Assembly (NCBI RefSeq): GCF_008000775.2
Contig: NZ_CP042905.2
Span: forward strand, 2,340,001 to 2,372,000
From: Promethearchaeum syntrophicum
GTDB taxonomy: Archaea > Asgardarchaeota > Lokiarchaeia > Sigyniarchaeales > Promethearchaeaceae
DNA length: 32,000 nucleotides
Direction: 5' to 3'
Position 1 is the stretch's first letter. Each line of letters begins with the position of its first letter. Below are positions 6,041 through 24,549 of this stretch, one piece after another. The notes under the pieces were generated by a model, which did not search any database, had not been told where the DNA came from, and saw only the letters and a program-made list of their open reading frames with translations. The position numbers were made by a program, and so were the translations under genes.

Positions 6041-6223
6041 TTATATTATATCAATAAAGATTTATTATTCTTTTTTAATATATATTTAAAATTTATCCCG
6101 CTATATTCTCATAAAGGGAATTTCTCATCTTGTAGAATCTCGATCTAACAATAAATCAGAAATATAAAAAAAATGAAGATATAAAGAAGTAAAAAAAAAA
6201 TTAAATTAATAAATTATTCATTA

Positions 6224-6510
6224 TTAGAATTTAATTTCGCCCATCTTGGCGCGCTCGTCAACTAAAGCTTTAACAACCTCAGGATTTGCCAATGTCTTAA
6301 CATCACCAATATCACCCATGGTCACACTTGCCTTCAAAACACGTCTCACAATCTTTCCTGAGCGGGTCTTTGGTAAAGCATCGGTAAACATGATAATTTC
6401 GGGTTTGACTGTTGGTCCGGCAACATTACGAACTTATTTGACAATTTCACCTTTCTATTCTTCAGTTTTCTCCACAACTTGCATAAGAGTGATATATGCG
6501 AAAATTGTTG
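6224..6510 (-). pseudogene. Truncated, stop-containing 3' fragment of an acetyl-CoA synthetase gene (last ~95 codons)
   Basis: It aligns without gaps to 22531..22817, the intact acs 3' end, at a constant offset of 16307. It encodes ...VRNVAGPTVKPEIIMFTDALPKTRSGKIVRRVLKA...NPEVVKALVDERAKMGEIKF*. In-frame stops lie at 6434-6436 (TAA) and 6455-6457 (TAG). Similarity ends abruptly near 6511. Confidence 0.85.
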
Positions 6511-6599
6511 AAAGCACTTAAAAAAGATACATAAAAATGTCAAATTTAATAAATATTGTTAAATATTTAATTTATAAACAAACAATAAAATGAGATAAA

Positions 6600-7652
6600 A
6601 TGGCAATAGAATTAGTTACTTTTGGAGTTAGATTATTTATAAATAGATGGATTGAATCAAAAAAAAAAATTACTCAAAATATCACAAATTATCTTGAAGC
6701 AGCAGCCAGAGATAAAAAAATTTCAAATACAGATTCAATAATATTAAAAACAAAAATTCTTGATATGATTAAGGTTACGGAAAATTTAAATCGCACAATA
6801 AATAAATCAAAGAAAAATATTGATTATATTTCACAAGAATTAATTGAAGATGCAGAACAATATATATCTACACTTAAAGACATAACTAGTAAGTTAAAAT
6901 ATGAATACCTTAATGAATTATTAAAAATGGAAGGCTCTATTAAAGATATTTCAGTAAAGGATTTACAAATTTCTACAGTTGAAGAAGAAATTGCGATATT
7001 ATGCATATTTGTAGCTGACCAATTACTAATTTGGATTTTTGAAGACATTATGGGATTCAAATTTTTAGAAGATAACTATGAAACATCAAGAATTGGAATA
7101 AAATATATTTTAACTGCTAAAAATAATATAGCTTATAATAGAAATGTAAAAGATGAAATTAAATCATATATTTCAAATTATTTAATTTTATATAAAGCGA
7201 TTGCGCAATATTTTCTATGTCGAAATAATCTTAAAAATATGTTGGGAATTACAAAGGAAATTGATACTATAGCAAATTATTTAAATTTTGTAATCAGAAA
7301 AACGGAAAATATTTTAGAATCAAGTGAATTTCTTAATGAAAAGAACAATCACATCTTAAAAATAATAAAAGAACACTCCATTGCTTTATTATGTGAAATT
7401 CAAGGAATAAAATTCAGTTTGAGAAGTTTAAAATCATATAAAAATTTAAACGATTTAATAAATAAAATAAAAAATAATTGGTATTACTCAGAATGGGAAT
7501 TTTTGGGGGAAAAACTAAGTTTAAATTGGGGGAATGATAATCTCGAAGAAAATAATATTGATTATAGTGTTGGAGAATCAGTTAATGAATTTAAAGGTAC
7601 TAAACAAGAATTCAATAATGAGATAAATGAAATAACTCCCTATAATATTTAG
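6600..7652 (+). CDS. Hypothetical all-helical Asn/Ile/Lys-rich protein, first gene of the OLD cassette
   Basis: 350-aa ORF with an ATG start. It ends in TAG at 7650-7652. No recognisable motifs. Confidence 0.55.
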   Translation: MAIELVTFGVRLFINRWIESKKKITQNITNYLEAAARDKKISNTDSIILKTKILDMIKVTENLNRTINKSKKNIDYISQELIEDAEQYISTLKDITSKLKYEYLNELLKMEGSIKDISVKDLQISTVEEEIAILCIFVADQLLIWIFEDIMGFKFLEDNYETSRIGIKYILTAKNNIAYNRNVKDEIKSYISNYLILYKAIAQYFLCRNNLKNMLGITKEIDTIANYLNFVIRKTENILESSEFLNEKNNHILKIIKEHSIALLCEIQGIKFSLRSLKSYKNLNDLINKIKNNWYYSEWEFLGEKLSLNWGNDNLEENNIDYSVGESVNEFKGTKQEFNNEINEITPYNI

Positions 7653-21746: not shown

Positions 21747-22331
21747 TGTAACTCACTGGATTCAGGTTGATTGAATCCATCACCGAGAGCAATTGTTCGT
21801 TGCAATTGCTCTCAATTCTTTCTTTTGGTCGGATTTTTTACCAATGAAAGGATTTTCGCCAATATCACACCATTTCACGCGGATCTCACAAGGGATTGGT
21901 CCTTACACGGTCTGTTCAGACCCTCAAAGCGGATGCAAAGCCAAAAAAGATCCCAAAAGGCTCTGCATCCAATGCTGTGAGGCGTGACAATATTTTATTA
22001 AATGACCACTCCCGTGATCACCTGGAAAAGAAGCTTTCTGTGGATCTTCCCTGTAAGTTTTCACGGAGGTTAGCCAAAGTCTTTGAAAGATGGGTGACCT
22101 CGAGCTTCAAATCCCAAGAATGGTCTTGGAATTCGGATCTCACGCAAAGGAATGACAAATTTTTTTTCGATATGATCGGGCGAACCGAGTCACATAAAAA
22201 GAACATTGTTCTCCAGTCCCCTTGGGATCCGCCTGCAACGAGTAGATTGGCGGTAATTATTATTTTGTCGGCAGATTATTTAATACTTTCGGAGTGCTAA
22301 GTGCTCCAAAAAGTCTTTTGGTGATGGATTC
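21747..22331 (-). ncRNA. Candidate structured non-coding leader of the IS110 recombinase (possible bridge-RNA-like guide)
   Basis: About 585 bp upstream of the transposase ATG has no convincing ORF and is GC-richer than the flanks. Hairpins lie at 21758..21778 (7 bp), 21785..21813 (11-bp perfect stem) and 21931..21970 (12 bp, 1 mismatch). A 12-bp perfect inverted repeat pairs 21773..21784 with 22320..22331. Confidence 0.3.
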
Positions 22332-22530
22332 CTAAGTATGAATTCCAAAATTACACAAATTCAAAGAGCTTTCCTTTTCTATAAGTAAAAATCATGTTTA
22401 AGATGAAAATGGCGAAGGAGTTGAGTTGGAGAAATGACCTTCTTCAAAATAAAGCAAAAAATCGTAATTTAAGGAACTTCAAAAAAAAATATAATAAAAA
22501 AAATAAATCGAATTTATAAAATATTCGTTA

Positions 22531-24549
22531 TTAGAATTTAATTTCACCGAGCTTAGCACGCTCGTCAATCAAATGTTGCACTACTTCAGGATTTGATAAT
22601 GTCATAACATCCCCAATATCAGCCATAGTCGCAATTGCTTTCAAAACACGTCTCATAATCTTTCCTGAGCGAGTTTTTGGTAACGCATCGCTAAACATGA
22701 TAATTTCTGGTTTGACCGTTGGTCCGGCAACACTTCGCACATGTGCGACAATTTCTGCTTTCAATTCTTCGGCTTTCTCCACGCCTTGCATAAGGGTAAT
22801 GTAAGCGAAAATTGTGGATCCTTTCATTGAATGAGGATATGGGCACACGGCACTTTCGGCTACTTTTGGATGGGAATTGATTGCAGCTTCTACTTCTGCA
22901 GACCCCAATCGGTGACCGCTTACCTTGATAACGTCATCGCTTCGTCCGAGAATAAAATAATATCCTTCTGCGTCAATTTGGGCATAATCGCCGGTAAAGT
23001 AATGCCCTGGGAATTTTGTGAGGTAAGTTTGAACAAATCGGTCGTGATCGCCCCAAACGGTGCGCATTAGACCAGGCCATGGCATATCATATGCAAAATA
23101 GGATTGTGTCATAGGTTCGGTGTTTTTCTCGCCTTCTTCGTTCAATAAAACAGGATTGATGCCGAAATATGGAAATGTACAAGATCCTGGTTTCATTGGA
23201 GTGATTGCGCCTAAATTAACCATCATGTAACTCCCAGTTTCTGTTTGCCAATAGCTGTCAACAATCGGTCGACCTACTGGCTTTTCACCGCCCGATCCTT
23301 TTCCTACTACGTCCCAGTACCATTTCCATTCCGGCCAGTTACAAACTTCTCCCACTGTCCCTAACATTTTAAGTTTTTCAAGATTCCACTTATTTACTTC
23401 AGCATCTCCGAATCTCATTAAAGCACGGATTGCGGTTGGTGCTGTGTAGAAATGTGTGACACCATATTTTTCACAAATTTCCCAAAATCGACCCTTGTGA
23501 GGCCATGTGGGAACACCTTCATACATAACGGTGATTGCACCGAGTGCGAGTGGGGAATAAATAATTTGAGTGTGGCCAGTAATCCAACCGATATCGGCGG
23601 TGCAGTACCAGACATCTCTGTCTTTAGGTTCGACACCCTTCAGGTCAATTAAACAGGAATAATCCCAAACATATTTGTTTGTGGACATTCCATAAACGAG
23701 GAAACCTGCGGTGGTGTGGACAACGCCTTTAGGCTTTCCGGTGGTTCCACTGGTGTATAAAATGAATAAAACGTCTTCAGAGTCCATAGGTTCACATGGG
23801 CATTCAATAGATTGTTTTTCAACTAAAGCGGTGAAATCGACATCTTTTTCGTATTTCCAGACATCGCCCCCAGTAACTTTAACAACTGCGACATGTTCGA
23901 TGGATGGGCAAGTCTCAATGATACCTTCGAGATTCTTTTTCATTGGGCGTGCTTTTCCTGATCTTCGGACTTCATCAGCGACCACGAGGACTGTGCAATC
24001 ACTGTCATCGATTCGATCTTTGACTGAAGAAGCAGAGAATCCCCCGAAAACGATAGAATGAATTGCTCCGATTCGTGCGCAAGCGAGCATAGTCACTGCG
24101 AGTTCACTAATCATTGGGAGCCATAAGCATACGCGGTCTCCTTTTTTCACACCGAGTTCTTTAAGAGCATTAGCGGTTTTTGAGACTTCATCTTGTAAGG
24201 CTTTAAAGGTATAGTTCTTAACAGTGTCATCTTCGCCGATCCAAACGAGTGATTTTTCGTTGCCGTAGCCTTTTTCAACCCATCTGTCGACGCAGTTGTA
24301 GCATACGTTTAATTTTCCACCTTGGAACCATTTTCCGACGAAATCTTCAGGAGTGGAGCCGGTCCAAACTTCTTTGTACGGTTCTGAGAAGGTAACCATT
24401 TTCGCTTCTTCAGCCCAGAACTCACGCGGGTTATCAACGGATTTTTTCCACATTTCTTTGTATGTGTCCATTGATTTAATCCGGGCGTTTGTGGCCAATT
24501 CCGGATTTGGGTAGTAAATTTTTTGTTTTTCTTTATCTGATTCTGACAT
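22531..24549 (-). CDS. acs: Acetyl-CoA synthetase (AMP-forming acetate--CoA ligase)
   Basis: Motifs are YTSGTTGKPKG, WYCTADIGWITGH, YFTGDYA, GRSDDVIKVSGHRLG and LPKTRSGKIMRR. The length of about 670 aa fits. An ATG is at 24549; the track's GTG at 24558 is an alternative start. Confidence 0.95.
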   Translation of the reverse strand: MSESDKEKQKIYYPNPELATNARIKSMDTYKEMWKKSVDNPREFWAEEAKMVTFSEPYKEVWTGSTPEDFVGKWFQGGKLNVCYNCVDRWVEKGYGNEKSLVWIGEDDTVKNYTFKALQDEVSKTANALKELGVKKGDRVCLWLPMISELAVTMLACARIGAIHSIVFGGFSASSVKDRIDDSDCTVLVVADEVRRSGKARPMKKNLEGIIETCPSIEHVAVVKVTGGDVWKYEKDVDFTALVEKQSIECPCEPMDSEDVLFILYTSGTTGKPKGVVHTTAGFLVYGMSTNKYVWDYSCLIDLKGVEPKDRDVWYCTADIGWITGHTQIIYSPLALGAITVMYEGVPTWPHKGRFWEICEKYGVTHFYTAPTAIRALMRFGDAEVNKWNLEKLKMLGTVGEVCNWPEWKWYWDVVGKGSGGEKPVGRPIVDSYWQTETGSYMMVNLGAITPMKPGSCTFPYFGINPVLLNEEGEKNTEPMTQSYFAYDMPWPGLMRTVWGDHDRFVQTYLTKFPGHYFTGDYAQIDAEGYYFILGRSDDVIKVSGHRLGSAEVEAAINSHPKVAESAVCPYPHSMKGSTIFAYITLMQGVEKAEELKAEIVAHVRSVAGPTVKPEIIMFSDALPKTRSGKIMRRVLKAIATMADIGDVMTLSNPEVVQHLIDERAKLGEIKF

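Follow-up and report, generated by a model that had tools for sequence, protein, structure and literature searches.

Why does the 3' end of one housekeeping gene occur three times on a single stretch of an archaeal chromosome? The gene is acs, which encodes acetate--CoA ligase, and the stretch is a 32-kb window of Promethearchaeum syntrophicum MK-D1. "The window" denotes this whole stretch, coordinates without a contig name refer to it, and "downstream" is used in the sense of acs, i.e. towards lower coordinates. The window has a G+C content of 31%. Its proteins are exact matches to the P. syntrophicum locus tags DSAG12_02666 and DSAG12_02668 and to acetate--CoA ligase, and the acs product is identical on the Logan contig DRR199588_40 (L001). 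The best reading of the three copies is that they are scars of at least two recombination events which joined DNA of other Promethearchaeum lineages to the acs locus. As a second genome with the same kind of layout shows, the acs 3' end is a recombination hotspot at which displaced gene ends are stacked.

Copies of the acs 3' end in MK-D1

The gene and the three copies of its end lie as follows.

22531-24549, minus strand: acs, intact, 672 aa, acetate--CoA ligase (Pfam ACAS_N, AMP-binding, AMP-binding_C)
22493-22818, minus strand: copy W, the reference; last 288 nt of acs (22531-22818) and ~38 nt of 3' flank up to a T-run
10780-10832, minus strand: copy rem2; last 24 nt of acs including the stop codon and ~29 nt of flank (blastn, repeat family)
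6168-6511, minus strand: copy R; decayed last 288 nt of acs (6224-6511) and flank (~6168-6223), with its 5' edge at acs position -288

We aligned positions 6191-6511 of R with 22498-22818 and found a gapless match of 83.2% identity over 321 nt (pairwise alignment; blastn E = 3.5e-94). Read in the acs frame, R has 96 codons with two stops, and the similarity breaks off at 6511/6512. The first-pass annotation had placed this copy at 6185-6510 and judged it three quarters to four fifths identical with two stops; the stops stand, while extent and identity are corrected by the values above. The same annotation had recognised rem2 as a 28-nt piece at 10805-10832. The homology holds and the length does not: rem2 spans 53 nt and takes in the 8 terminal codons, the stop and, as far as an A-run, ~29 nt of flank. 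Its counterpart in the intact copy is 22501-22554, with 79.6% identity in 54 aligned positions (E = 1e-6 to 4e-8). If 3 mismatches are allowed, the 28-mer occurs 0 times in 100 dinucleotide-preserving shuffles, so the suggestion that this similarity sits within the A/T-rich background fails. Chance similarity of the copies was thus rejected by the shuffles and the blastn E-values. R and rem2 are true homologues of the acs 3' end, and the threefold presence of that end in direct orientation is confirmed.

All three copies share one orientation and are 3'-complete, and the 12-mer reported across the stop codon (TTATTAGAATTT) is indeed common to them. R and rem2 are truncated at the 5' side. On the flank side W, R and rem2 end at the same A-run, which reads as a T-run in the sense of acs. 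W and R are also identical over 18 nt around the stop codon (GAAATTAAATTCTAATAA) and, once one R-specific change is discounted, over 14 nt at the -288 boundary (TCCACAATTTTCGC); neither block is above expectation at 83% identity (0.83^14 ~0.07 for the shorter block). No further copy of the acs tail turned up, either elsewhere in the window or in the 2.3 kb left of it. The surroundings of rem2 are repetitive: ~9 perfect tandem copies of the 10-nt unit AAGAAAACTT stand at 10652-10741, just after the gene for a nuclease of the OLD family, and the Logan contig breaks off within them. On its other side rem2 is directly adjoined by two copies of the palindromic ACGAAAAAATTCGT, 33 nt apart (10835-10890).

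For the lineage of R we aligned nine tails over 288 sites, namely W, R, those of the congeneric loci L003, L025, L033, L035 (genome GCA_030620205.1) and L036 and the two long copies of L034, the second genome described below. R differed at 24 sites from L025, at 26 from the L034 tail (I34), at 31 from L035, at 34 from L003 and at 48 from W. Eleven changes were unique to R and fell on the three codon positions in the ratio 2/6/3, both stops included; for each of the other eight tails at least 62% of the unique changes were at third positions. R is thus a pseudogene fragment and non-functional. We then counted derived sites in the comparison with L025 and L003: 0 were common to R and W, while each of the other two splits had 4. 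R therefore comes from a lineage other than that of the present acs.

The same result decides against several local origins. As R has no derived site in common with W and is nearer to the tails of other species, an in-situ duplicate, a retro-copy and recent decay of a paralogue are ruled out. A copy of the resident acs gene or its mRNA had been considered for the terminator-like T-run at which all copies end, and was rejected on these grounds. The first-pass annotation had named decay of a former tandem acs paralogue as its alternative. Asgard genomes do hold distant acs paralogues (53-56% identity), but the alignment contradicts this origin, and a second acs or tail within 10 kb was found at none of the 21 genome loci fetched. 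Three copies that are all 3'-complete and 5'-truncated would moreover be unexpected from such decay, and R keeps a 3' flank orthologous to that of L035 (tail and flank 87.3% identical over 355 aligned positions). We therefore regard this explanation, and with it an in-situ segmental duplication, as very improbable.

The stretch between rem2 and acs had been annotated as an integrative cassette (10833-22526). It contains the following segments.

20178-22492, minus strand: insertion sequence (IS) of the IS110 family, ~2.3 kb; transposase at 20211-21746 (Pfam DEDD_Tnp_IS110, Transposase_20)
18001-20023, plus strand: backbone; DUF4760 gene 19599-20006 and MFS open reading frame (ORF) 17893-19440, with L035 homology over 18001-19457 (Pfam, L035 synteny)
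14110-18000: 3.9-kb block absent from L035; 246-aa protein, RHH + 151-aa pair, CPBP/Rce1-like protease
13556-14109: backbone segment syntenic with L035, whose contig stops there

The order in L035 is acs, a GIY-YIG gene, DUF4760, MFS and then the match to 14109-13556. Nucleotide identity between the window and L035 is 84.4% for acs, 82.7% for DUF4760, 83.8% for MFS and 86.8% for 13556-14109. The W tail differs at 45 of 288 nt (15.6%), which is comparable to the acs body and the downstream genes, and the W flank is kept in L003 and L035. From this uniform divergence and the synteny it follows that acs, its present tail and much of the supposed cassette form one co-linear block. Relative to L035 this block is without the GIY-YIG gene and has gained the IS110 element and the 3.9-kb indel block, in place of which L035 has 120 nt between the segments matching 18001 and 14109 (L035 positions 6796-6916). 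The acs-proximal part of the supposed cassette is hence conserved chromosome, and the rest is recent IS110 and indel sequence. The listed 515-aa MFS ORF overlaps the CPBP ORF, and the true MFS start is probably further downstream.

R lies outside the co-linear block, and 11 of its 31 differences from L035 are decay changes. R had first been described as the former native end of the present acs, simply displaced. Divergence and synteny together led us to reject this; in MK-D1 it comes from another lineage. This leaves two alternatives for MK-D1, and it may be either: the block from acs to ~10833 was imported onto an old end R, or R and rem2 arrived with foreign DNA. Import of the block would explain the order and the co-orientation of the copies. 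The first-pass annotation had also predicted an empty site in relatives, with the acs stop joined to the sequence left of 6185. No such site was found, and the only homologue of the gene to the left stands in the unrelated context of locus L032.

The IS110 element is inserted in the T-run ~38 nt past the acs stop and masks the continuation of the flank. L001 (Logan, run DRR199588) is 99.97% identical to the window and has the empty site: 20178-22492 is missing and the acs flank is joined directly to the DUF4760 side, at L001 positions 12040-12070. Elsewhere a second IS110 copy sits in a T-run 14 nt after the stop of a homoserine dehydrogenase gene. We rejected IS110 as the agent of the repeats: reads of the same culture lack it at this site, it has no cargo, and the places into which it inserts are T-runs behind genes. 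The element is polymorphic and later than the repeats, with no role in their origin. The 745 nt upstream of its transposase are non-coding and may specify a bridge RNA; the other end of the element has a GGGGGTCAACGACCCCC hairpin. The NCBI contig WYDS01000049.1 joins the flank on the homoserine dehydrogenase side to that on the acs side across the IS and resembles an assembly chimera.

A second genome with stacked acs ends

L034 is a congeneric metagenome contig of 205 kb (JGI 3300037245) whose acs shares a 90% cluster with those of the closest relatives. In its own coordinates the locus reads as follows.

1516-3537: intact acs, followed by a small membrane-protein gene
4227-4395: short tail copy and flank, with clear homology from ~75 nt before the stop, followed by a paralogous membrane-protein gene
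5078-5402: long tail copy B34 and flank, 287/288-nt, 88.9% identity, ORF still open
5437-7230: GIY-YIG/NUMOD3 gene, 597-aa product

The 5' edge of B34 falls on the same acs nucleotide as that of R within 1 nt, i.e. at -288, at the junction GGA/TCCACAATTTTCGC. In the window this breakpoint (GGA/TCC) lies at 22816-22821. The DNA beside the boundary is unrelated between MK-D1 and L034 (alignment score 42; shuffles with a mean of 49 and a maximum of 67). The two long remnants R and B34 both span -288 to ~+40-60, and the flank-side end is common to all copies in both genomes. As B34 is followed by the GIY-YIG gene, which in relatives follows the intact acs, B34 is the original gene end with its native neighbour. 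The 1.8-kb insert, inside acs at -288, thus supplies a replacement end along with two small membrane-protein genes without family match; no integrase was found in it. Relative to L034 an arrangement like an empty site exists in L033 and L035. That an insertion displaces the old gene end, as the first-pass annotation had proposed, therefore holds well for L034, where the distal copy keeps its native neighbour, and not for R in MK-D1. B34 is barely decayed and R is decayed, from which we infer separate events at one hot point.

Stop codon and flank type are uniform within each genome: all three copies in MK-D1 have TAA and flank type alpha, all three in L034 have TAG and type beta. The middle module of L034 resembles a tandem duplicate of tail, flank and membrane-protein gene, which would suit segmental duplication. 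Upstream of -288 by ~420-540 nt, the L034 acs contains a patch that is 26-30% different from all congeners, with 18 lineage-unique changes in 120 nt, which suggests another recombination tract in the gene body.

The gene next to B34 is of interest in its own right. A GIY-YIG/NUMOD3 gene was identified at these positions.

L033: 4221-5975
L034: 5437-7230
L035: 2830-4551
L004: 12178-13602
L005: 13416-14441

In L033, L035 and L004 it stands directly 3' of the intact acs, in L005 one gene further on. In several Lokiarchaeia the gene is convergent to acs and lies ~110 nt past its stop, and its product has a long low-complexity N-terminus. The Pfam scores in L033, L034 and L035 were 27-29 bits for GIY-YIG (cut-off 22.6) and 75-81 bits for NUMOD3. 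At the intergenic site between acs and DUF4760 the gene is present in L033, L034 and L035 and missing in MK-D1, L003 and L036. The cargo of the L034 modules, the endonuclease gene and IS110 all start ~40-50 nt past the acs stop.

The gene end beside this site is variable too. Across the genus the last 90 nt of acs occur as two haplotypes. R, L003, L025, both long L034 copies, L035 and L036 carry the KM type, W and L033 the KL/QHLI type; the CTCGG of the KL type also marks the coding end of rem2 and the short L034 copy. Recombinant tails were seen in the acs cluster members P0136 and P0137. The presence/absence pattern together with the mosaic tails is what would be expected of a free-standing homing endonuclease gene with co-conversion. 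Free-standing GIY-YIG homing endonucleases are known from T4-like phages (Seg proteins, with an I-TevI-like architecture), and homing normally results in a clean replacement without duplicated gene ends. The likeness is in a GIY-YIG + NUMOD3 gene placed between conserved genes, variable among relatives and next to a mosaic gene end. The difference is in the duplicated ends, in the lack of the gene from the window and in the hosts, which are Asgard archaea and not phages; cleavage by the protein is putative.

A tail-peptide scan of metagenomes returned three short contigs only, and Logan contigs contained no W/R hybrid. The region downstream of acs was also considered as a general Asgard hotspot. 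We rejected this, as in loci of the Heimdall/Hodarchaeota group the ORFs that follow acs recur in much the same size, strand and order, and the scanned Lokiarchaeial loci have ordinary genes downstream of acs and no remnants.

How the ends may have been stacked

In the reading that we favour, to which we give about an even chance (roughly 0.5), acs would have been broken at a specific site and repaired with homeologous donor DNA as the template; the joint on the acs side would rest on homology, the opposite one would not. The process would start with a break or strand exchange in acs at the junction described above. Host recombination would then complete the event, anchored by homology within acs or upstream of it and joining the ends without homology at the far side. 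As an outcome a new acs end and donor DNA would be installed and the old end would remain intact from the cut site onward. Each event would leave a 5'-truncated, 3'-complete end further downstream, and segments of different origin would become stacked. An element-encoded integrase would not be needed, and the free-standing GIY-YIG/NUMOD3 gene, which is homing-endonuclease-like, is a candidate source of the break. Break and repair of this kind would explain why the boundary is constant, why the DNA adjoining it is unrelated, why an integrase is lacking and why the "insert" contains ordinary chromosomal genes. Homology-facilitated illegitimate recombination in transformable bacteria likewise combines one homologous anchor with one non-homologous joint and has scattered joints. 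It would yield a replacement end and a retained resident fragment; it differs in that the joint here recurs at one nucleotide in two genomes.

Several observations weigh against this reading. Remnants are present in only two genomes: acs tail remnants were found in 0 of 3 further congeneric loci, for which 2-6 kb downstream of acs were covered, and in none of 17 loci that belong to other Asgard genera and to a few other archaeal metagenome-assembled genomes. The shorter remnants break elsewhere (-24 for rem2 and ~-75 in L034). The window contains neither the GIY-YIG gene nor a remnant of it, and presence of the gene does not go along with any consistent sequence difference at -288. The motif GGATCC is rare; it occurs 3 times in the 32-kb window and once in the 13.5-kb L034 locus and lies on the breakpoint in both, which offers a lead but a weak one once all palindromes are allowed for. 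Finally, the direction of transfer in MK-D1 pulls two ways: order and co-orientation suggest R as the older resident, synteny and divergence suggest that the acs block is vertically coherent.

The first-pass annotation had read the repeats as the footprint of integrative elements inserting repeatedly into one gene end. The known case is Escherichia coli icd, where insertion of e14 or phage 21 into the gene's 3' end supplies a diverged end and the original survives as the fragment icdC (PMC13626634). Here an integrase would recombine an attP site that carries an acs 3' end with a core located in acs at -288, and would since have been lost or act in trans. The layout equals that of icd and icdC flanking e14 (PMC13626634): there is a replacement end and a 5'-truncated, co-oriented fragment far from it, and L034, where the distal copy is the native end, fits well. 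The identical -288 boundary in two genomes and the 14-nt block there also speak for a fixed core, although that block is within chance. Homologous 3'-complete ends and displacement in L034 are thus what stands of this proposal. However, e14 encodes an integrase and excises precisely. By Pfam, no integrase or site-specific recombinase was present in the main ORFs of the window (at least 100 aa) or in six-frame translations of its two large gaps, which bears out, fragments included, the earlier remark that none is visible between the repeats; the transposase of the later IS110 insertion was the only match of this kind. The 2.3 kb left of the window, where a recombinase or further acs remnants had been suspected, contained neither. 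The inserts consist of tiny membrane-protein genes in L034 and of largely conserved chromosome in MK-D1, where the supposed element would contain the conserved acs neighbourhood. The presumed P arm next to the boundary is unrelated between the genomes, and IMG/VR viral contigs held no virus or mobile-element relatives of acs, DUF4760, the OLD nuclease or the 350-aa protein encoded between R and rem2. Remnants stacked with differing breakpoints are a further departure from e14: the three 5' breakpoints (-288, -24 and ~-75) differ, so a single att core cannot explain all of them. We consider elements of this classical type unlikely.

Homology alone could also move cassettes. A circle of the acs segment (-288 to ~+45) and its cargo would pop out between two tails and be re-inserted by a single crossover, and the -288 edge would be inherited from a first event. 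R and B34 share both ends and all copies share the flank end, the cargo varies by module, no recombinase is required, and each genome has a single flank type and a single stop codon, all of which would suit such a circle. The cargo in MK-D1 would have to include the DUF4760-MFS backbone, though, and there is no haplotype switch along R, which would confine the crossover to the last 16 nt or the flank. The unrelated DNA adjoining -288 in the two genomes and the different decay of B34 and R, which points to separate events, also argue against it. We hold this explanation to be rather improbable.

Surrounding genes and biological meaning

The block between rem2 and R (6512-10779, plus strand; Pfam, PADLOC) includes the tandem repeat described above and contains three genes.

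6600-7652, plus strand: Loki-specific 350-aa protein
7851-8360, plus strand: 169-aa membrane protein
8463-10610, plus strand: OLD-family ATPase-TOPRIM nuclease (Pfam, PADLOC)

Homologues of the 350-aa protein elsewhere stand alone, without OLD or an acs tail, and no terminal inverted repeats were found around 6512-10779. Between rem2 and acs we found genes for a DUF3784-like protein (a sub-threshold Pfam match), a 661-aa membrane protein and a 246-aa protein, the RHH + 151-aa pair and the CPBP protease, MFS, DUF4760 and IS110 genes. OLD, CPBP, MFS and IS110 had been named correctly in the first-pass annotation. Its VapBC is an RHH protein with a 151-aa protein that has no PIN match, and its PH-like membrane proteins are unsupported, the DUF3784 match being sub-threshold and a weak DUF2207_C match being the only other. 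Scans for tRNA genes and Rfam families found none, and GC content was uninformative on the origin of the segments.

To the left of R lies a defence-rich patchwork, which comprises window positions 1-6100 and 2.3 kb further left (L024).

4919-6091, minus strand: single-gene module next to R; 372/375-aa protein without family match
2552-3034: second of two ThsB-like TIR proteins
2019-2468 and 1440-1919: PDC-M50 A/B pair
left-hand defence island: Zn-ribbon-like 173-aa protein
just outside the window, left: MmeI-like type IIL restriction-modification gene, 959 aa

The gene of the 375-aa protein has a homologue in L032 (91% at the nucleotide level) with homology confined to 4919-6091, and it is not a conserved acs neighbour. 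By a motif seen by eye only, its product may be a PD-(D/E)xK nuclease. A 313-aa lysine/serine-rich ORF (3147-4088) consists of three 138-nt tandem repeats of 83-85% identity, at which the Logan assembly breaks. Upstream of acs there are three paralogous genes for ~270-aa membrane proteins without family match (25151-25990, 26631-27434 and 28788-29585), and their 5' regions form a 252-nt repeat family with 63-76% identity. The 107-aa ORF at 30176-30499 starts with an N-terminal CxxC/CC run, followed by a membrane segment.

Mobile Asgard DNA that accumulates at a fixed chromosomal site has been described before. HeimV1 and the aloposons integrate at fixed tRNA-gene sites, HeimV1 by means of a viral integrase (PMC8813620). 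At the acs locus the target is the end of a protein-coding gene and no integrase was detected. We tentatively suggest, as an idea that is unlikely to hold in all its parts, that genomic islands may be built here without an integrase: a site-specific break, perhaps the work of the free-standing GIY-YIG neighbour, would open a housekeeping gene in its 3' end and be repaired from a diverged congener by homology on one side, and the earlier end with its cargo would be pushed outward, which would leave dated scars with defence genes between them.

DNA exchange in Asgard archaea is poorly known, and the elements described in one study use tRNA genes (PMC8813620). The acs locus offers a record, both dated and readable, of how Promethearchaeum lineages repeatedly exchanged DNA at the end of a protein-coding gene. 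From its direct repeats one would expect deletions and chimeric acs alleles. Should a homing endonuclease or some other site-specific break indeed be at work, defence and accessory genes would have a concrete and testable way of accumulating beside core genes in the closest prokaryotic relatives of eukaryotes.

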